Shown here piece after piece: positions 1,198 through 36,915 of a stretch of 36,915 nt of DNA; the first letter of the stretch is position 1, and every line of letters starts with the position of its first letter. Position numbers and translations under genes: made by a program. Under the pieces are notes generated by a model that saw only the letters and a list, made by a program, of their open reading frames with translations, did no database searches and was not told where the DNA came from. Location of the stretch: UHGV virus genome UHGV-0071814. The stretch is one strand, 5' to 3'. The DNA is from a virus.

Positions 1198-1547
1198 ATA
1201 TGTCGCTCGCAGAACTCAACAAGCCTGCTCATTAAGTAGCAGTAAGTCTCGTTGGCTCTTCCTGGTTCAACATCAACACCTACCCTTGAGCAGATATCGA
1301 ATGCCATGTGAGCGCACTCATGGGCAATAGTAGATAGTTTGCCATTGAACACGCCTATCACATGCAAAACACCATTCTCGCTACTCATTGTATGAGACGC
1401 TCCGTTGGCGTCCGAGTCATGCACGTCAACGCCAAGTTTTTGATGCAGGCGTTGCCATTCTGGAAAGTCTCTACAAAACACAATTGTACCGCTCTCAAAG
1501 AGCGGAACGAGCATCTTTGGTACGTTTCCAATGTTAACTTTTTTCAT
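1182..1547 (-). CDS. Hypothetical protein with HExxH motif (possible small metallopeptidase-like protein)
   Basis: 121-aa ORF; HECAH within IAHECAHMAFD; AGGAT upstream of start. Confidence 0.45.
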   Translation of the reverse strand: MKKVNIGNVPKMLVPLFESGTIVFCRDFPEWQRLHQKLGVDVHDSDANGASHTMSSENGVLHVIGVFNGKLSTIAHECAHMAFDICSRVGVDVEPGRANETYCYLMSRLVEFCERHIKKPE

Positions 1548-2157: not shown

Positions 2158-4155
2158 CTATTCTGACAACGAATCAGACTTAGCACCCTGCGTCAGTGCA
2201 TTAATCGCTTTTTGCGCTTGCTGCATGGCTTTCTCAAACGCTGTCGATCCGCGTGGTGTGTTTGCCATTCGGAGCATTGCATTTCTGAATGGTTCGCTCT
2301 CATAGGCGCGAGTAAGAAGTCCGTAGCTTACCGCTGCGCCAGTTGTCGCCGGGTTCATTGCTGTCCCATACCCGATAATGAACGGGATGGTTTGCTGCCC
2401 TGTTGGTGTTGTTACTGCCGCTTTTGCAGCCTGCTGCGTGGATTGCAGGTAGTTTTTCAATCCTTTCAGATAAGCAGCGTCCTGCCCCTTAAATGTGATG
2501 CCAGTCTGGTTTTGCAGGATGTTAAGCTGTCGAAGGAACTGATCAGGGGAACCACCTGATTTCTCCATCGCCTTTCCAATGATGCCATTGCGCATTTGCG
2601 CCCTGCCAACACGACCAACTGAGTTATACAGCGTCTTAATTTCCGATTTGTTCTTGCTGAATAGCATGTTGTTGACAACTTCCGGCGTCAGGTCGCCTTT
2701 CATGAGAACATTCTTCAGCATGGTATTCTTTAGTTTCGCCGCTTCGTCAGCGTAGACGGCATTGGCCTGCTGATATTTACGGAGAGTATCGTTGCCAAGA
2801 TTCTGACCAATGGCACCATTGATATCGTCGGTCATTGCCTTGTAAACGCGCTGAATGGCAGCATCGGAACGGTTTGGTAACACTGGTCGCTCACCCTTCA
2901 CATCCATTCTGAACTGGCTGCGCAGATCGCTTAATTGCTTCAAATCCAGATTTACCGGACCATCAGGACCAGCATTGCGAACAAGCTCATCACGATAGGA
3001 CTGAAGTTTTGAAATAGTCTCGTTATCAGCAACCTTACCAAGCTTCTGCAGGTTAGATATTTCTGTATCAATCTGCTGAATTGCTCTTGCAGGCTGAATG
3101 TTTATTCCCGCCATAGCATTCTGAACCTGCTCCAGTCGATTACCGGCGGCACGACGAATTCCTGATGTTTTCGCTTTAAGGCTGTCAATAACAACCGCTG
3201 GATCATACTCACCGAATTTATCAGCAAATCTCTGAACCAACTGGCTTCTCGCTTCCTGTTGCGTTGCTCTCATTCCGCTTGTGCCAGCCAGGGGGATATT
3301 TTCTGCTGTCGTTTGCGCCATTTTTCCGACGCGGGAAGTAGGCTGTAACAGGTCTGTGGTGTGCAGAGGAACTCCTTCACGCTCTGCAAATCTGATAGCC
3401 TGCTGCGCTTCTGGCGCAATAGCACCACGAACGCCACGATAAGCAGCACCTAATCCACGTCCGGCAGCGTTAATAGCACCGCCAGCCAGAACGCCAACGC
3501 CTAAATCGGTGGCGAGTGCTTCCGCATCATCTTTCGCACTATTTGCAGCAAGTGATCCAACTGCGTTTTCTGCTAGAAGGCGAGTTGCCCCCTGAGCAAT
3601 TCGACCAGCAAGTGTTGGTGCCTGTGCTGCCGCTCTCTCAACGCCAGCAGGAGTGAGGTAAGGCAATGCTTCAGCAAATACCCTTCCCTCTGTCGTTTGT
3701 GGAGTGAGCGCGCCTTGCTGAAGGCCAAAGTCCTGCTCTAACCCCTGCGTTGTTACTCGTGGCGCTGGTTGATATGTACCATCGCCAATGCCGAGTTTAC
3801 CGCCAGCCCATGCCGCCGCGCTTGTTACAGCATCGGCAACTGATGCAGGTATGTTTGCCACGTTCACGCCAGCCTGCACCAGTCCGCGACCAGTTTCTTT
3901 CACGGCTTCACCAAGATCCGACATAAATCCACTTTGCTGTGGTTGTTGCTGTGATACTGGTTGTTGTGTCTCCACTGGCTGCACAGATGGCAATGGATAG
4001 GCAGCATAGAAAGCTTGCTTAGCCTGCTCTGCATTTTCTCCGGCTTGCGGGGCAACGACTTCATTGAAGTATTGCTCCTGAGCCTGCGCTTTTTGTTCTG
4101 GTGCTAACGCCTGATACTGTGGAGAGGCGATAACATCTTTCCATGCTTTAGCCAT
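2158..4155 (-). CDS. DNA ejection/injection protein (P22 gp16-like)
   Basis: 665-aa Ala/Gly/Gln-rich protein at the end of the gp7-gp20-gp16 block after the tail needle. Confidence 0.7.
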   Translation of the reverse strand: MAKAWKDVIASPQYQALAPEQKAQAQEQYFNEVVAPQAGENAEQAKQAFYAAYPLPSVQPVETQQPVSQQQPQQSGFMSDLGEAVKETGRGLVQAGVNVANIPASVADAVTSAAAWAGGKLGIGDGTYQPAPRVTTQGLEQDFGLQQGALTPQTTEGRVFAEALPYLTPAGVERAAAQAPTLAGRIAQGATRLLAENAVGSLAANSAKDDAEALATDLGVGVLAGGAINAAGRGLGAAYRGVRGAIAPEAQQAIRFAEREGVPLHTTDLLQPTSRVGKMAQTTAENIPLAGTSGMRATQQEARSQLVQRFADKFGEYDPAVVIDSLKAKTSGIRRAAGNRLEQVQNAMAGINIQPARAIQQIDTEISNLQKLGKVADNETISKLQSYRDELVRNAGPDGPVNLDLKQLSDLRSQFRMDVKGERPVLPNRSDAAIQRVYKAMTDDINGAIGQNLGNDTLRKYQQANAVYADEAAKLKNTMLKNVLMKGDLTPEVVNNMLFSKNKSEIKTLYNSVGRVGRAQMRNGIIGKAMEKSGGSPDQFLRQLNILQNQTGITFKGQDAAYLKGLKNYLQSTQQAAKAAVTTPTGQQTIPFIIGYGTAMNPATTGAAVSYGLLTRAYESEPFRNAMLRMANTPRGSTAFEKAMQQAQKAINALTQGAKSDSLSE

Positions 4156-16748: not shown

Positions 16749-17234
16749 TTATTTCAGTTCGTTACCAGGCATTTCTTTTAGCTCTTTCAAATGACAACGA
16801 TTGAGACTAAACCACTCCCCGTGCGACCTATAGTTGTAATATTTTTGGTGCAATTTGGTTTCAAGCTCTCTATCGGCCGGAATCTTTGCAATTAGATTTA
16901 GCTTCCCACCACTCATGCGAGATATCTCTGAAATCCGTTTATTAACCCTGCGACTAAACCCTATTTTTGTTAGCCCACTATCTTCAGCATGCAGAACGTA
17001 CACATATGATTTTTGCGAAGCACTGGGTGCGACTTTGTTGTAATTAATCATGTCAAACATGAAGCCTTGCTTTAGCAAAGTTTCAAAAAAGATAGAATTA
17101 ACACACCCATTCCTTCTCAGCTCTGCACTTAGCTTGTCAATTTCCTCTATGATGTCGCCAGACCCCTTTCCACTTATAAGAAAATCTTGGTACATGCGAC
17201 CAATTCTTGAGGTAATTTCAACAAAGTTATTCAT
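16749..17234 (-). CDS. T5orf172 (GIY-YIG-like) domain protein; AT-rich moron
   Basis: C-terminal YVYVLHAEDSGLTKIGFS...LHQKYYNYRSHGEWFSLN fits the T5orf172 pattern; markedly AT-rich versus flanking genes. Confidence 0.6.
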   Translation of the reverse strand: MNNFVEITSRIGRMYQDFLISGKGSGDIIEEIDKLSAELRRNGCVNSIFFETLLKQGFMFDMINYNKVAPSASQKSYVYVLHAEDSGLTKIGFSRRVNKRISEISRMSGGKLNLIAKIPADRELETKLHQKYYNYRSHGEWFSLNRCHLKELKEMPGNELK

Positions 17235-18015: not shown

Positions 18016-18488
18016 ACCTCAATCTCTCTGACCGTTCCGCCTGCTTCTTTAAATTTTGCAATCAGGCTGTCAGCCTTATGCTCGAACTGACCATAACCAG
18101 CGCCCGGCAGTGAAGCCCAGATATTGCTGCAACGGTCGATTGCCTGACGGATATCACCGCGATCAATCATCGGTAAAGCGCCACGCTCCTTAATCTGCTG
18201 CAATGCCACAGCGTCCTGGCTTTTCGGAGAGAAATCTTTCAGGCCAAGCTGCTTACGATAGGCATCCCACCAACGGGAAAGAAGCTGGTAACGGCCTGCA
18301 GCTGTTGATTTGAGTTTGGGGTTTAGCGTGACAAGTTTGCGAGGGTGATCTGAGTAATCAGTGAATAGCTCTCCGCCTACAATGACGTCATAACCATGAT
18401 TTCTGGTTTTCTGTCGTCCGTTATCAGTTCCCTCTGACCACGCCAGCATATCGAGGAACGCCTTACGTTGATTATTGATTTCCACCAT
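18012..18488 (-). CDS. R: Endolysin, lambda R-type lytic transglycosylase
   Basis: 158 aa [35 protein letters not shown]..., near-identical to lambda R as recalled. Confidence 0.9.
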
Positions 18489-18795
18489 CTTCTACTCCGG
18501 CTTTTTTAGCAGCGAAGCGTTTGATAAGCGAACCAATCGAGTCAGTACCGATGTAGCCGATGAACACGCTCGTTATATAAGCGAGATTGCTACTTAGTCC
18601 GGCGAAGTCGAGAAGGTCACGAATGAACCAGGCGATAATGGCGCACATCGTTGCGTCGATTACTATTTTTGTAAACGCACCGCCATTATATCTGCCGCGA
18701 AGGTACGCCATTGCAAACGCAAGGATTGCTCCGATGCCTTGTTCCTTTGCCGCGAGAATGGCGGCTAACAGGTCATGTTTTTCTGGCATCTTCAT
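18472..18795 (-). CDS. S: Holin, lambda S-type (dual-start Met1-Lys2-Met3)
   Basis: 107 aa [22 protein letters not shown]...; three TM segments. Confidence 0.9.
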
Positions 18796-19037
18796 GTCTT
18801 ACCCCCAATAAGGGGATTTGCTCTATTTAATTAGGAATAAGGTCGATTACTGATAGAACAAATCCAGGCTACTGTGTTTAGTAATCAGATTTGTTCGTGA
18901 CCGATATGCACGGGCAAAACGGCAGGAGGTTGTTAGCGCAGCCTCCTGCCACCCGCTTTCACGAAGATCATGTGTAGAAGGCCGCAGCGTAACTATCACT
19001 GATGAGTTCAGGATAGCCAGTGGCTACGGCTCAGTTA

Positions 19038-19113
19038 TGGTGCTGGTTAACGGACTTGAACCGCTACCCATTCGCTTACAAGGCGACTGCTCTACCATTG
19101 GAGCTAAACCAGC
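19038..19113 (-). tRNA. tRNA, probably Thr (anticodon UGU)
   Basis: Manual fold: 7-bp acceptor stem, D arm GCTC/GAGC, anticodon loop CUUGUAA, T arm with GGTTCAAGTCC, 3' CCA. Confidence 0.6.
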
Positions 19114-19118
19114 ATATT

Positions 19119-19193
19119 TGGCGGGACAGCGTGGACTCGAACCACGATAAGAAGGTTAACAGCCTTCCGTAATGACCTTTATACGACTGACCC
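19119..19193 (-). tRNA. tRNA, probably Asn (anticodon GUU); one T-T mismatch in acceptor stem
   Basis: Manual fold: anticodon stem GAAGG/CCTTC, loop CUGUUAA, T arm GGTTCGAGTCC, 3' CCA. Confidence 0.55.
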
Positions 19194-19196
19194 AAA

Positions 19197-19216
19197 TAAA
19201 AAATCCCGAAACCGTT
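19197..19216 (-). terminator. tR'-like intrinsic terminator (end of lambda 6S-like leader)
   Basis: Minus strand AACGGTTTCGGGATTTTTT; flanking sequence matches my recollection of lambda tR'. Confidence 0.6.
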
Positions 19217-19386
19217 GTGCAGGCTCTAACTATTACCTGCGAACTGTTTCGGGATTGCATTTTGCAGACCTCTCAGCCTGCTATGGTTGGAGTTCCAGAC
19301 GATACGTCGAAGTGACCAACTAGGCGGAATCGGTAGTAAGCGCCGCCTCTTTTCATCTCACTACCACAACGAGCGAATTAACCCAT

Positions 19387-19878
19387 CTATCCCATACTGG
19401 AGAATTCACCATGATATTTTATCCTGGCATTTTCCATTGCCTTTCTCGCCTCCTCGATATCGTCAAAACACCCTACATGAATCCTTTTACCATTGACCCT
19501 AATTCTTCCAACCCACTTGTTTGCAGCAGAATTAAAAGTCACCCCCTTCACACCAGATGAATTGTTTTTCCTCATCTTGCTGTTCCATGAGTTTTGAGTG
19601 TTAGTAACAACACGAAGATTGGCTATCCGGTTATCAGATCTATCACCATTAATATGGTCAATCACATCGGTTGGCCAATCATTGTAAACCATCAGCCATG
19701 CAATTCTATGGACATATAGCCGCATTCCATAAAGTTTTACCTGCAGATATCCATTTGTTTCATAGCCAACAACAGCGCCATAGATAAATCTAGAGGACCG
19801 AGGTGGATTCTTCCATGTAAGAATTCCAGTATCTGGATTGTAATTAAAAAGTCTCAATGCATCTTCACGTTTTAACAT
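19387..19878 (-). CDS. HNH homing endonuclease with C-terminal AP2-like domain
   Basis: 163 aa; ...VHRIAWLMVYNDWPTDVIDHINGDRSDNRIANLRVV...SGVKGVTFNSAANKWVGRI... Confidence 0.7.
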   Translation of the reverse strand: MLKREDALRLFNYNPDTGILTWKNPPRSSRFIYGAVVGYETNGYLQVKLYGMRLYVHRIAWLMVYNDWPTDVIDHINGDRSDNRIANLRVVTNTQNSWNSKMRKNNSSGVKGVTFNSAANKWVGRIRVNGKRIHVGCFDDIEEARKAMENARIKYHGEFSSMG

Positions 19879-20078
19879 AGGCGAACCACATAGATATTAG
19901 AGCCTGCTGACATAGAAATATCACCACGAGAGAAGTCGCCAAAAGCGATATTTCTCAGGCTCTATTCCTATGTGCTCTCGAGTTTATGATGCGCATGTCA
20001 GTGCGCTTAGAACTTAAAGATGAGGTGGGTAAAAGCTGAAAGAATGTGAACGGATATAAATCTGCCATTCTTGGGTCA

Positions 20079-20107
20079 AATTTACCCAACTTTATTCAAA
20101 AAGTCAA
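20079..20107 (-). promoter_or_regulatory. Late promoter PR' (-35 TTGACT, 17-bp spacer, -10 TAAATT) with Q-utilisation region
   Basis: Minus strand TTGACTTTTTGAATAAAGTTGGGTAAATT just downstream of Q; closely resembles lambda PR' as recalled. Confidence 0.6.
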
Positions 20108-20149
20108 TATCATGCCGTTAATATGTTGCCATCCGTGGCAATCATGCTG

Positions 20150-20773
20150 CTAACGTGTGACCGCATTCAAAATGTTGTCTGCGATTGACTCTTCTTTGTG
20201 GCATTGCACCACCAGAGCGTCATACAGCGGCTTAACAGTGCGTGACCAGGTGGGTTGGGTAAGGTTTGGGATTAGCATCGTTACAGCGCGATATGCGGCG
20301 CTTGCTGGCATCCTGGAATAGCCGACGCCTTTGCATCTTCCGCACTCTTTCTCGACAACTCTCCCCCACTGCTCTGTTTTGGCAATATCAACGGCCCGGC
20401 CAGTACCGTGGCAATCTCTGCATCTTGCGCCCGGTGTCGCGGCACTACGGCAATAATCCGCATAAGCGAATGTTGCGAGCACTTGCAGCACCTTTGCCTT
20501 AGTATTTCCTTCGAGCTTTGCCACACCACGGTATTTCCCCGATACCTTGTGTGCAAATTGCATCAGATAGTTGATAGCCTTTTGTTTGTCGTTCTGGCTG
20601 AGTTCATGCTTACCGCAGAATGCAGACATTCCGAATCCGGCTTGTGATTGCGCCATCCCCATAGCAGCCATCACATCAGTACCGGAAAGAGAGTCAGAAG
20701 CCGTAGCCCGTGGTGAGTCGCTCATCATCGGGCTTTTTGGCGAATGAAATTTAGCTACGCTTTCGAGTCTCAT
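20150..20773 (-). CDS. Q: Late antiterminator Q (lambda-type)
   Basis: 207 aa MRLESVAKFHSPKSPMMSDSPRATASDSLSGTDV..., near-identical to lambda Q as recalled; zinc-binding Cys cluster. Confidence 0.9.
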   Translation of the reverse strand: MRLESVAKFHSPKSPMMSDSPRATASDSLSGTDVMAAMGMAQSQAGFGMSAFCGKHELSQNDKQKAINYLMQFAHKVSGKYRGVAKLEGNTKAKVLQVLATFAYADYCRSAATPGARCRDCHGTGRAVDIAKTEQWGRVVEKECGRCKGVGYSRMPASAAYRAVTMLIPNLTQPTWSRTVKPLYDALVVQCHKEESIADNILNAVTR

Positions 20774-20958
20774 GGTCTTCCCCTCTTGCCCTGTTTGACC
20801 ATCAGGACGCCGTTAACTATTACGTGACGCTCACCTTTGCTGTCTCGGTTGTACTTGAGCACTGTTCCTCTTGCACAGGAAAGCATCCTCGCCACTTCGG
20901 TCTGATTGCCTCGTGTCTGGATAAGAAGCTCTGGTATCGTTTGAATTGTGGCGTTCAT
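20770..20958 (-). CDS. ninH: NinH-like protein
   Basis: 62 aa with GNQTEVARMLSCARGTV HTH-like motif, position between rusA and Q. Confidence 0.65.
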   Translation of the reverse strand: MNATIQTIPELLIQTRGNQTEVARMLSCARGTVLKYNRDSKGERHVIVNGVLMVKQGKRGRP

Positions 20959-30483: not shown

Positions 30484-31191
30484 ATGGATTTGAATAAATT
30501 CGATGAGCCATTCAGCCCTGAAGATATCGAATGGCGAATACAGCAAAGCGGTAAAACACGCGATGGCAAAGTGTGGGCTATGGTGCTGGCTTATGTCACG
30601 AACCGGGCAATCATGAAACGCCTGGACGATGTTTGCGGCAAAGCAGGATGGCGCAATGAATACCGCGATATTCCCAACAACGGCGGCGTTGAATGCGGCA
30701 TATCAATAAAGATTGATTCCGAATGGGTAACCAAATGGGATGCTGCTGAAAACACGCAGGTAGAAGCCGTCAAAGGTGGTCGTTCCGGTGCAATGAAGCG
30801 CGCTGCCGTTCAGTGGGGAATCGGTCGGTATCTGTATAACCTTGAGGAAGGTTTCGCACAAACATCTCTCGATAAAAAGCAGGGATGGCACAGGGCAAAA
30901 CTCAAGGATGGAACAGGATTTTACTGGCTCCCTCCATCGCTGCCGGGATGGGCAATCCCAGCATCTGGCAATCAACCATCACCAGAAAATACCAACCAGA
31001 AATCTCCATCGGTTGACTGCGAGCAAATCCTGAAAGACTTCAGCGATTATGCGTCAACAGAAACTGACAAGAAAAAACTCATCGAGCGTTATCAGCATGA
31101 CTGGCAATTAATGGCTGGCAATGAGGATGCGCAGGCTAAATGCGTTCAGGTAATGAGCATCAGAGTTAACGAACTAAAACAGGCGGCATAA
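30484..31191 (+). CDS. Single-strand annealing recombinase (Rad52/Sak-type SSAP)
   Basis: 235 aa; motif ...AAVQWGIGRYLYNLEE...; immediately upstream of ssb. Confidence 0.65.
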   Translation: MDLNKFDEPFSPEDIEWRIQQSGKTRDGKVWAMVLAYVTNRAIMKRLDDVCGKAGWRNEYRDIPNNGGVECGISIKIDSEWVTKWDAAENTQVEAVKGGRSGAMKRAAVQWGIGRYLYNLEEGFAQTSLDKKQGWHRAKLKDGTGFYWLPPSLPGWAIPASGNQPSPENTNQKSPSVDCEQILKDFSDYASTETDKKKLIERYQHDWQLMAGNEDAQAKCVQVMSIRVNELKQAA

Positions 31192-31665
31192 ATGGCAAGC
31201 AGAGGCGTAAATAAGGTGATCATTATTGGTCGCCTTGGGCATGATCCAGAAATCAGATATTCACCATCAGGAACGGCATTTGCAAACCTTACAGTTGCTA
31301 CGTCAGAAAAATGGCGTGATAAGCAAACTGGAGAGCAAAAGAAGCAGACGGAGTGGCACCGCGTGGTAATGAGCGGAAAACTGGCAGAAATTGCCAGCGA
31401 ATATCTGCGAAAAGGCTCTGAGGTTTATCTTGAAGGAAAATTGCGGACAAGAAAATGGCAGGATCAAAGCGGACAGGATCGGTTCACTACCGAAGTTATC
31501 GTAGGCGTTGGTGGAACCATGCAAATGCTTGGTGGCAAGCAAGGAGGCAATGAACAGTCTTCACCTCAGCGAAATAACGGTCAGCAACAAAGACAGCAAC
31601 CTCTGCAGCAGGGAAATCACAGCGAACCACCTATGAACTTCGACGATTCGGATATTCCGTTCTAG
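31192..31665 (+). CDS. ssb: Single-stranded DNA-binding protein
   Basis: OB-fold N-terminus [27 protein letters not shown]..., Gly/Gln-rich linker, acidic tail DDSDIPF. Confidence 0.9.
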
Positions 31666-32167: not shown

Positions 32168-32464
32168 ATGCCAGCGCCTCTGTATTGTGCGGATGACGCG
32201 CGCCGCTGTTCCGGCAATTCCGTATCGGAGGTGCTGGATAAATTCAGAAAAAACTACGATCGAATAATGTCTCTACCGCAGGAAACGAAAGAGGAAAAGG
32301 AATTTCGCCACTGTATATGGCTTGCAGAGAAAGAAGAACGCGAGCGAATTTACCAGACATCAATCCGACCATTCCGCAAAGCCACATATACCCACTTCCC
32401 TGAATATATCGACCCGCGCCTGCGTAATTACCGCTCACGCTATGGCGCTATCAGTAATGACTGA
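32168..32464 (+). CDS. Hypothetical protein
   Basis: 98-aa ORF in early-left operon. Confidence 0.45.
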
Positions 32465-35390: not shown

Positions 35391-35810
35391 ATGAGGCCTG
35401 TACATTTCTCAAGATATCCAGACCTACCGCAATCATGTCAATCCAATAAATGGAGATTCCAGGTGGAAGAAGAAATCTTCACTCGTGAAGAAGCTGCGTC
35501 GTATCTGAAGGTAGACAAAGGCACTATCACACAGTGGATACGAAGTGGACGACTTCAGGCCGCAAAGATAAATCCAGATAAACCTAAAAGTCCATATCGC
35601 ATTTGCAAGTCAGACTGCATTGTGGCGCTTAAGTCTGTGAGACACAATAGCGCGGTGAATGCGGTTGATGTGCAGGAGGTTAAAGCATGTCAATCAAACT
35701 ACGCGGTGGCACGTGGCACTGCGATTTCGTCGCGCCAGATGGATCAAGAGTTAGACGCTCTCTTGAAACATCGGACAAAAGGCAAGCGCAAGAACTTCAC
35801 GATCGTCTAA
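35391..35810 (+). CDS. xis: Excisionase-like DNA-binding protein; start uncertain (ATG 35391 or GTG 35461); overlaps int by about 124 bp
   Basis: HTH-like segment FTREEAASYLKVDKGTITQWIRSGRLQAAKI; immediately upstream of int. Confidence 0.55.
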   Translation: MRPVHFSRYPDLPQSCQSNKWRFQVEEEIFTREEAASYLKVDKGTITQWIRSGRLQAAKINPDKPKSPYRICKSDCIVALKSVRHNSAVNAVDVQEVKACQSNYAVARGTAISSRQMDQELDALLKHRTKGKRKNFTIV

Positions 35811-36847
35811 AAGCAGAAGCGTGGAGAGTAAAAAATCTCGGGGAATCACCGAAAAAGCTATTCAAGGAAGCCTGCATACGGTGGCTGCGTGAGAAATCGG
35901 ATAAGAAGTCCATTGATGATGACAAGAGCATTATATCGTTCTGGATGTTGCACTTCAGAGAAACCATTCTCTCAGACATAACAACAGAAAAAATAATGGA
36001 GGCGGTAGACGGGATGGAAAACCGCCGCCATCGCCTGAACTGGGAAATGAGCCGGGACAGGTGTTTGCGGCTTGGCAAGCCAGTGCCGGGGGATAAACCA
36101 ACGTTGGAAAGCAAAGGAACGAAGACGCGGCATCTGGCAATACTTCGCGCTATTCTCAATATGGCTGTTGAATGGGGATGGCTTGACAGGGCGCCCAAAA
36201 TATCAACACCACGCGTTAAGAATGGACGAATCAGATGGCTTACAGAGGAGGAATCGAAGCGCCTGTTTGCAGAAATTGCTCCTCATTTCTTCCCTGTGGT
36301 CATGTTTGCAATCACGACAGGCCTTCGCCGTTCCAACGTTACAGACCTTGAGTGGTCACAGGTCGATCTGGATAAGAAAATGGCATGGATGCACCCTGAT
36401 GAAACAAAAGCTGGCAATGCGATCGGAGTTCCTCTTAACGAAACCGCATGCCAGATATTAAGAAAACAGCAGGGTCTCCATAAGAGATGGGTGTTTGTCC
36501 ACACCAAACCTGCCTACCGAAGCGACGGAACAAAAACAGCAGCGGTAAGGAAGATGAGAACCGACAGCAACAAGGCATGGAAGGGAGCGTTAAAGCGGGC
36601 AGGCATTAGCAACTTCCGCTTCCATGACCTGAGGCATACCTGGGCAAGCTGGCTGATTCAGTCCGGTGTCTCTCTTCTTGCACTTAAAGAGATGGGAGGA
36701 TGGGAAACTCTCGAAATGGTTCAAAGATACGCCCACCTTTCAGCCGGGCATCTCACCGAGCACGCGAGCAAAATCGATGCGATTATAAGTCGCAATGACA
36801 CAAATACGGCACAAGAGGAGAACGTAGTTTACTTAAATGTGAGATAA
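35687..36847 (+). CDS. int: Tyrosine-type site-specific integrase
   Basis: 386 aa; catalytic motifs ...FRFHDLRHTWAS... and ...VQRYAHL...; AGGAGG RBS; adjacent to tRNA. Confidence 0.9.
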   Translation: MSIKLRGGTWHCDFVAPDGSRVRRSLETSDKRQAQELHDRLKAEAWRVKNLGESPKKLFKEACIRWLREKSDKKSIDDDKSIISFWMLHFRETILSDITTEKIMEAVDGMENRRHRLNWEMSRDRCLRLGKPVPGDKPTLESKGTKTRHLAILRAILNMAVEWGWLDRAPKISTPRVKNGRIRWLTEEESKRLFAEIAPHFFPVVMFAITTGLRRSNVTDLEWSQVDLDKKMAWMHPDETKAGNAIGVPLNETACQILRKQQGLHKRWVFVHTKPAYRSDGTKTAAVRKMRTDSNKAWKGALKRAGISNFRFHDLRHTWASWLIQSGVSLLALKEMGGWETLEMVQRYAHLSAGHLTEHASKIDAIISRNDTNTAQEENVVYLNVR

Positions 36848-36861
36848 CTTATTGATTTTAA

Positions 36862-36915
36862 TGGTGCCGATAATAGGAGTCGAACCTACGACCTTCGCAT
36901 TACGAATGCGCTGCT
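36862..36915 (-). tRNA. thrW: tRNA-Thr (anticodon CGU), 3' portion only; prophage attachment site
   Basis: Minus strand ...AGCGCATTCGTAATGCGAAGGTCGTAGGTTCGACTCCTATTATCGGCACCA; anticodon loop and T arm through CCA match E. coli thrW as recalled; truncated by window end. Confidence 0.8.

Follow-up and report, generated by a model that had tools for sequence, protein, structure and literature searches.

Two tRNA genes, one for tRNA-Asn(GUU) and one for tRNA-Thr(UGU), lie one behind the other on the minus strand of the window (the whole stretch of DNA analyzed, 36.9 kb), which covers nearly the whole of a P22-like E. coli prophage; the nearest phages are vB_EcoP-720R6, Kapi1, CUS-3 and HK620. The minus strand is the late strand, and the features of the late transcription unit are collected in Table 1. 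A preliminary description based on a manual fold of positions 19038-19216, a range that takes in both tRNAs and the 3′ end of tR', had placed two such genes with CCA ends on the late strand, a few nucleotides past the T-tract of tR' and upstream of S. Indeed, ARAGORN and Rfam call both genes with the anticodons of the manual fold, CCA is encoded in each, and the coordinates agree with the proposed position. ARAGORN found these two complete tRNA genes in the window and no more.

In the order of transcription, the tR' hairpin is followed by U6-A-U3, tRNA-Asn, a 5-nt spacer, tRNA-Thr, 242 nt of leader and then S, R and Rz, with tRNA-Asn starting 4 nt past the U6 run of the terminator. Lambda and the window are nearly identical up to the tR' T-tract, diverge over about 160 bp and become identical again at AACTGAGCCGTAGCC. 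At the site of the cassette lambda has non-coding sequence, as the preliminary description had stated; it measures about 163 bp and is unrelated to the tRNA genes. Since this divergence is bounded by lambda identity on both sides, the cassette represents a clean module replacement. A second departure lies further upstream in the late leader, where pR' is separated from the 6S/tR' sequence by an insert of about 690 bp that holds an ORF for an HNH endonuclease; this ORF is outside the tRNA cassette, yet on the same transcript.

The thrW gene is the attachment site of P22-type phages (PMC8022706), and at its end the window has part of a tRNA-Thr(CGU) gene, which the integrase gene adjoins. A link between the cassette and the integration site was considered and ruled out, the attachment-site tRNA being Thr(CGU), thrW, which is another gene.

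Table 1. Features of the late transcription unit and of the integrase end of the window
Feature	Coordinates	Strand	Basis
Integrase gene	35687-36847		Adjoins partial tRNA-Thr(CGU) at window end
Q late antiterminator, lambda type, 207 aa	20150..20773	(-)	Pfam PF03589 Antiterm, E 1.2e-57; antitermination protein in near-identical E. coli prophage
pR' late promoter, TTGACT-17-TAAATT	20079..20107	(-)	Promoter scan; near-identical to lambda and HK620 pR' (alignments)
HNH_3 + AP2 endonuclease ORF, 163 aa	19387..19878	(-)	Pfam PF13392, E 5.6e-17; PF00847, E 3.1e-8; HNH endonuclease in RefSeq relatives
Lambda 6S RNA homologue, from its +3, ending in tR'	19194..19387	(-)	Near-identity to lambda 44590-44785
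tR' hairpin	19256-19202	(-)	-26.9 kcal/mol, z -6.6
tR' U-tract, U6-A-U3	19203-19194	(-)	Sequence
tRNA-Asn(GUU), 75 nt, encoded CCA	19119..19193	(-)	ARAGORN anticodon GTT; Rfam 55.3 bits, E 1.9e-9
Spacer, 5 nt, AAUAU on the RNA (AACAU in phage 21)	19114..19118	(-)	Sequence comparison
tRNA-Thr(UGU), 76 nt, encoded CCA	19038..19113	(-)	ARAGORN anticodon TGT; Rfam 61.5 bits, E 4e-11
Leader from tRNA-Thr to S, 242 nt	19037-18796		Lambda-homologous (alignment)
S holin, first protein-coding gene past the tRNAs	18472..18795	(-)	Pfam PF05106; lambda alignment

Fold, identity elements and covariation

Both tRNAs span positions 1-71 of 71 of the Rfam model RF00005, and their scores (Table 1) compared to its gathering score of 29 exclude chance as the origin of the two calls. 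The minimum-free-energy structure is a cloverleaf for each of them. The anticodon loops, CUGUUAA and CUUGUAA, have the 7 nt, the U33 and the purine at position 37 that are expected of tRNAs, the T-loops read UUCGAGU and UUCAAGU, in keeping with the consensus UUCRANU, and G18G19 is present in both D-loops. The identity elements for AsnRS are the GUU anticodon and G73, while those for ThrRS are G1-C72, C2-G71, G35 and U36. The window tRNA-Asn carries GUU with discriminator G73, and the window tRNA-Thr carries G1-C72, C2-G71 and, within UGU, G35 and U36, with A73 as its discriminator.

Some positions depart from the canonical form. The T-T mismatch that the preliminary description had noticed in the acceptor stem of the Asn candidate is visible as U4·U69 in the Rfam alignment, which shows a further mismatch at U13·U22. 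In tRNA-Thr, G27·A43 is mismatched, leaving an anticodon stem of 4 bp, and C14 takes the place of A14. These non-canonical positions account for Rfam scores 12-17 bits under those of the host genes asnT (72.6 bits) and thrU (73.8 bits); the P1 and N4 homologues also outscore both window tRNAs. The low scores, the three mismatches (4-69, 13-22 and 27-43) and C14 would fit decaying pseudogenes, or tRNA-like RNA-processing signals whose role in translation has been lost.

The pattern of variation argues against such decay. We compared 18 distinct variants of tRNA-Asn and 20 of tRNA-Thr, all from close relatives and, in the case of tRNA-Asn, with the D-arm fixed by the search pattern. Compensatory double changes were seen in six pairs of tRNA-Asn (5-68, 6-67, 7-66, 28-42, 29-41 and 4-69, the last counted through a variant with G·U and another with U·G) and compensatory changes in four pairs of tRNA-Thr. 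For Asn and Thr alike, the observed covariation score was reached by none of 500 shuffles, and slid controls gave 2 at most. The U4·U69 mismatch is retained in 16 of the 18 Asn variants; because it persists while the neighboring acceptor pairs covary, it is a conserved trait and not a sign of decay. Similarly, G27·A43 is invariant (20/20 distinct Thr variants).

The doubt that had been raised about the function of tRNA-Asn on account of its mismatch is therefore not supported, the more so as the phage 21 tRNA-Thr, identical to that of the window, is active and rescued cells from the toxicity of P2 Old (PMC12445682). In addition, the anticodon loops, the T-loops, G18G19, CCA, G73 of tRNA-Asn and G1-C72/C2-G71 of tRNA-Thr are all intact. 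With the covariation, the conserved mismatches and the published activity of the identical tRNA-Thr taken together, we reject the idea of pseudogenes or mere processing signals as extremely improbable. As judged from their sequences, tRNA-Asn and tRNA-Thr are two functional tRNA genes under selection on the cloverleaf.

Distribution of the cassette and its place on the late transcript

The tRNA-Asn/tRNA-Thr cassette has long been known and is widely annotated, with experimental support for a function of its Thr member; it adds little as a genome feature and does not by itself amount to a discovery. Each of the two tRNAs matches its counterparts in phage 21 (AJ237660) and Sf6 (AF547987) at 100% identity. 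A 171-nt cassette query showed 99.4% identity to phage 21, Sf6 and SfI, with a single spacer base differing between phage 21 and the window. In the Sf6 record the two genes, described as 'similar to phage 21', stand directly after tR' as tRNA-Asn and tRNA-Thr, and the pair is also annotated in mEp506, Kapi1, Bas106, SfI, relatives of phage L and hundreds of RefSeq E. coli prophages. The late leaders of phage 21, Sf6, SfI, HK446, mEp506 and Kapi1 share the Asn-then-Thr order, the start a few nucleotides past the tR' U-tract and the position before the holin gene (PMC3636060; PMC8022706). The Bas106 cassette is identical to that of the window.

Of 5426 complete E. coli genomes, 369 (6.8%) carry the 160-bp cassette, and cassette identity is at least 99% in 259 of 375 E. 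coli records. Among 120 IMG/VR contigs gathered with the Asn D-arm as search pattern, the composition was Asn-Thr in 96, Asn-Gly in seven and Asn-Phe-Thr, with or without a trailing Arg or Arg-Gly, in eight, the remainder being minor variants. A T-run of at least 5 was found within 20 nt before tRNA-Asn in 109 of these contigs. The terminator was of the phage 21 type in 89 of the 120 and of the lambda type in 12; the window thus belongs with the minority that has a lambda-type 6S RNA/tR', whereas phage 21 has a short leader of its own type. A further difference from the phage 21-type systems is the HNH endonuclease ORF that the window leader additionally holds. The junction, TTTTTTATTT followed by GGGTCAG, is common to lambda-type and 21-type terminators. 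The cassette is a small mosaic module lying right after the late-leader terminator in a P22-like (HK620/CUS-3/Kapi1-like) prophage. Recent capture from the host was considered as an origin and ruled out, with identity reaching only 72% to thrU and 63% to asnT.

Such a module could also be functional but nearly neutral in this phage, travelling with the Q/pR'/tR'-lysis module and kept by linkage. A junction at the T-tract TTTTTTATTT that is the same in lambda-type and 21-type contexts fits this idea, as does the state of several relatives: HK620 has no tRNA genes, and IME10 and lambda lack the cassette. Moreover, the second gene is decayed or chimeric in some lineages, namely phage L and JLK-2012, where ARAGORN made no call for the 'Leu' of the former or the 'Thr' of the latter; selection on the cassette is therefore not universal. 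The high conservation among E. coli records, the compensatory nature of the variation where it is present and the occurrence in 6.8% of complete genomes all speak against a passenger, and we consider this explanation improbable.

Besides pR', the sole good upstream match, a sigma-70 scan of positions 18400-20900 returned only one weak site, which lies within the HNH ORF; between tR' and tRNA-Asn, where the 4-nt gap leaves no room for a promoter, it predicted none. A promoter of their own was accordingly ruled out for the tRNAs, which should come from Q-modified read-through plus basal read-through of tR'. This agrees with the co-transcription with the late operon that the preliminary description had thought likely. 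We propose that polymerase starting at the constitutive pR' would mostly halt at tR', with slight read-through even without Q, and that once Q is made it would pass tR' and transcribe Asn, Thr, S-R-Rz and the morphogenetic genes. RNase P and 3′-end processing would then free both tRNAs from the late transcript. Their expression, as predicted from this arrangement, would be Q-dependent. The cell would gain an ACA-reading and an AAC/AAU-reading tRNA with anticodon arms unlike those of the host.

Codon usage of the late genes

The preliminary description had suggested that the tRNAs might supplement codon supply. In its pure form, this explanation would have the cassette provide an ACA decoder, for which E. 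coli has the single gene thrU, and an Asn decoder for the late burst, with no link to defense. The position of the cassette at the head of the late operon suits this role. ACA ranks third among the codons over-represented in the late genes, with 16.0 per 1000 codons there and 5.4 in a set of K-12 genes numbering 42 (odds ratio 3.0, p 6e-12). A similar bias has been reported for SfI (ACA 17.3 vs. 7.1; PMC3636060), and 24 of the 25 Asn codons in the coat gene of phage L are AAC (PMC8022706).

The comparison with a relative that carries no tRNA genes weakens the argument. In HK620, the one genome that served as tRNA-less control, ACA stands at 14.5 per 1000 and the ACA/Thr ratio of 0.28 equals that of the window, so that ACA bias is not specific to tRNA carriers. 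Two codons, AGG and AGA, exceed ACA in their enrichment in the late genes, yet no tRNA is carried for either. Asn codons are enriched only 1.2-fold (45.6 vs. 37.5 per 1000 in K-12; odds ratio 1.23, p 0.01), and E. coli has four Asn tRNA genes. The 3-fold enrichment of ACA thus upholds the suggestion in part, but because the bias is found in HK620 too and the enrichment of Asn codons is slight, codon supply explains the cassette only in part. It is plausible for Thr and weak for Asn, and it does not separate carriers from non-carriers; as the whole explanation of the cassette we consider it rather unlikely.

The tRNA genes ileZ-argN-argO of Stx phages such as 933W, which lie downstream of Q/pR', have classically been explained as rare-codon supply. 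They resemble the cassette in standing at the head of a Q-dependent lambdoid late transcript, and differ from it in their Ile and Arg anticodons and in the stx genes that follow.

Anticodon arms and the nucleases Old and AriB

P2 Old kills lambda-infected cells by cutting the host tRNA-Thr(UGU), thrU (Govande et al., NAR 2025, PMC12445682). Its target in the anticodon stem, of which it cuts both strands, is a paired C28-N-G30/C40-N-G42 motif, and it acts more slowly on Asn(GUU), Lys(UUU) and Val(UAC) (PMC12445682). Phage tRNA-Thr(UGU), including that of phage 21, rescue cells and withstand cleavage; the resistance of the phage 21 tRNA was attributed to C28U/G42A together with a shorter anticodon stem, and the effect of another rescue tRNA hinged on the UGU anticodon (PMC12445682). 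The rescue by phage Thr tRNAs was partial (small colonies), with plasmid expression in a Gam + Old system (PMC12445682). The PARIS nuclease AriB is efficient on Lys(UUU) and Thr(UGU) and less so on Asn(GUU); it cuts between positions 40 and 41 in U36-A-A-U39-C40, and mutation of U39 in tRNA-Lys abolishes cleavage (Belukhina et al., PMC12409363). The T5 versions of the Lys, Thr and Asn tRNAs jointly neutralize PARIS (PMC12409363). Lambda, which PARIS restricts (PMC9122126), is without the cassette.

The anticodons of the cassette, UGU and GUU, match host tRNAs that Old and AriB deplete. We compared the anticodon arms of the host and window tRNAs at the two cleavage sites. Host thrU has the stem ACUGA/UCAGU with the AriB site UAAUCA, and host asnT the stem GCGGA/UCCGU with UAAUCC. 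The window tRNA-Thr, by comparison, has the stem GUCGC/GCGAA and the site UAAGCG, with G39, U28-A42 and no CNG on either strand, while the window tRNA-Asn has the stem GAAGG/CCUUC and the site UAACCU, with C39, a full 5-bp stem and again no CNG on either strand. Both window tRNAs therefore lack U39 and the CNG motifs. As the window tRNAs are only 63-72% identical to those of the host, any particular host motif would be expected to be missing by chance. G39 is found in all five phage Thr(UGU) tRNAs examined (window/21/Sf6, Mulock, P1, N4 and T5).

The window tRNA-Thr shows precisely the published resistance features of phage 21. It has the same gene sequence as tRNA-Thr21 of PMC12445682, with U28-A42 for C28-G42, no paired CNG and a 4-bp anticodon stem, an identity taken from the GenBank entry for phage 21 together with the base changes that the text of that paper gives. 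For tRNA-Asn, the sequence of the anticodon arm suggests that it may resist Old or AriB. Pure codon supplementation leaves unexplained why the anticodon stems are unlike those of the host exactly at the nuclease sites, and why G27·A43 is invariant.

On balance, we think it somewhat probable that these functional late-operon tRNAs have their most specific value in replacing host tRNAs destroyed by Toprim nucleases, with codon top-up secondary. The gained tRNAs would stand in for those destroyed by P2 Old and by PARIS AriB, the latter encoded on P4-like satellites, and topping up a scarce ACA decoder would be a secondary gain. The 100% identity to phage 21 and Sf6, the placement at tR', the covariation, the lost cleavage motifs and the recurrence of an Asn(GUU) and Thr(UGU) pair in P1, N4, T5 and Klebsiella phage Mulock are consistent with replacement. 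Several observations speak against it. PARIS also requires replacement of tRNA-Lys(UUU), and the cassette has no tRNA-Lys; expression that is late and depends on Q might not come in time if Q, which has 4 ACA codons, could no longer be translated; and the cassette may simply have come with a lambda/21-type late-lysis module.

The known trigger of Old, Gam, also bears on the question. The window encodes a P22-type Abc2 (PF11043), which did not trigger P2 Old in the published system (PMC12445682), and a tblastn search of the window found no homologue of Gam (best E 0.12), so that the Gam-type RecBCD inhibitor that triggers Old is absent from this phage. With Abc2 present, Gam absent and Abc2 no trigger in that system, the window phage probably does not trigger Old and the anti-Old benefit may be idle, a point that also suits retention of the cassette by linkage. 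Whereas the rescue by tRNA-Thr21 was plasmid-borne and involved Gam and Old, the phage of the window carries Abc2, and its tRNA would be made from the late operon. We infer the relevance of nuclease evasion to the window phage itself. The locus combines an experimentally validated anti-Old tRNA-Thr, carried by a P22-like phage that is probably no trigger of Old, with an adjoining tRNA-Asn whose anticodon matches that of a tRNA on which Old and PARIS both act secondarily. It illustrates a shift in the reading of phage tRNAs, from codon top-up to replacements for tRNAs cut by defense nucleases.

A broader proposal, which we offer tentatively and hold to be less than an even prospect, is that Asn and Thr form a matched counter-defense unit, carried in lambdoids and independently in P1, N4 and T5, against the ATPase-Toprim nucleases of the P2/P4 family (Old and PARIS AriB). 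The Asn member would then be as resistant as Thr, and the site behind tR' would allow a trickle of tRNA from infection onwards and in lysogens, followed by a burst with Q. If this were true, G27·A43, the lost U39 and perhaps U4·U69 and C14 would be evasion traits and not marks of decay.

The tRNAs of other phages offer points of comparison. T5 shares two of its three anticodons with the window, and U39 is lost in both. The T5 set includes a tRNA-Lys, of which the window has none, the sequences are only 62-66% identical, and evasion of AriB by the window tRNAs is predicted from their sequence. P1 has an Asn/Thr tandem in the C1-repressed ban operon and N4 an Asn-Ser-Thr-Pro cluster; each has the same anticodon pair on one strand with lytic expression, but identity to the window is only 59-88%, the genomic context is another, and N4 adds Ser and Pro. 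P1 retains the paired CNG in its tRNA-Thr and U39 in its tRNA-Asn, whereas the window tRNAs are without both.

The Asn(GUU)/Thr(UGU) pair and its variants

The combination of Asn(GUU) and Thr(UGU) seen in the window recurs in P1, N4, the Klebsiella lambdoid phage Mulock and T5 (see the table). These coliphages are otherwise unrelated and have only a small number of tRNA genes. The Thr(UGU) genes of these phages share G39: this base was found in all five versions compared (that common to the window, phage 21 and Sf6, and those of Mulock, P1, N4 and T5), whereas the host gene thrU has U39.

A second peculiarity concerns position 14 of the window tRNA-Thr (19038-19113, minus strand), where C replaces A. 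A14 is almost universal in tRNAs and pairs with U8. The same C14 is present in the Mulock tRNA-Thr and in nearly all variants among the IMG/VR viral contigs carrying the cassette (>90% conserved). The defence nuclease AriB of the PARIS system has been suggested to contact the D-loop, too (PMC12409363).

In some cassettes the second tRNA gene is chimeric or degenerate, as seen in JLK-2012 and phage L, and ARAGORN made no call for either the JLK-2012 'tRNA-Thr' or the phage L 'tRNA-Leu(TAA)'. JLK-2012 also has tciA/tciB 3′ of its tRNAs, a feature likewise found in P1.

Features of the window and of comparison sequences (L numbers, own coordinates)
Feature	Sequence	Coordinates	Strand	Remarks
tRNA pair	P1 (L012)	2425-2578		tandem, 2-nt spacer, within C1-repressed ban operon
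Asn-Ser-Thr-Pro cluster	N4 (L013)	2337-2586		
Asn-Phe-Thr-Arg cluster	Mulock (L006)	1201-1520		
Asn(GUU) and Thr(UGU)	T5 (L009)			
'tRNA-Thr'	JLK-2012 (L004)	1288-1363		thrU-like 3′ part joined to phage 5′ half; anticodon stem broken
'tRNA-Leu(TAA)'	phage L (L005)	1288-1359		72 nt; acceptor stem in common with cassette Thr
T5orf172/MUG113-domain ORF	window	16749-17234	-	between lysis and terminase genes
HNH_3+AP2 endonuclease insert	window	19387-20066 (ORF 19387-19878)	-	~690 bp; late leader
Rad52/Erf-like annealase	window	30484-31191	+	early-left operon
SSB	window	31192-31665	+	early-left operon
Abc2	window	32168-32464	+	early-left operon; P22-type anti-RecBCD, PF11043
Tyrosine integrase	window	35687-36847	+	adjoins partial tRNA-Thr(CGU)
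Partial tRNA-Thr(CGU)	window	36865-36915	-	34.3 bits; cut by window end; thrW att site

The late leader

The HNH insert is flanked by lambda-type pR' on one side and by lambda 6S/tR' sequence on the other, the lambda homology 3′ of it restarting at 6S +3. The ORF lies downstream of the Q-loading site and ahead of tR', and its transcription from pR' would be constitutive. It was present in all five of the best-ranked E. coli genome matches with 100% coverage of the 801-nt query. HK620 shares pR' with the window as far as ...CAACGATGG and then has a different leader of its own (~650 nt); about +10 is therefore a mosaic joint.

In one of the 120 IMG/VR viral contigs, a window-type pre-HNH leader (...GGAATAGAGCCTG) is fused straight to CATAACGGTTTCGGGATTTTTTATTG, followed by tRNA-Asn. 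The arrangement resembles a deletion with two AGAGCCTG repeats as its end points, in which HNH, the greater part of the 6S sequence and the 5′ arm of tR' have been lost. The late operon of that contig would then lack its leader terminator.

Early-left operon, attachment site and an accessory ORF

No homologue of lambda Gam was found in the whole window by tblastn (best E 0.12), and P2 Old is reportedly not triggered by Abc2 (PMC12445682). The partial tRNA-Thr(CGU) and the adjoining integrase mark thrW, the usual attachment site of P22-like phages (PMC8022706), and this end of the window is therefore a prophage junction. Finally, the T5orf172/MUG113 ORF, in place of which relatives have a KilA-N protein, is probably a further moron or mobile nuclease-like gene.
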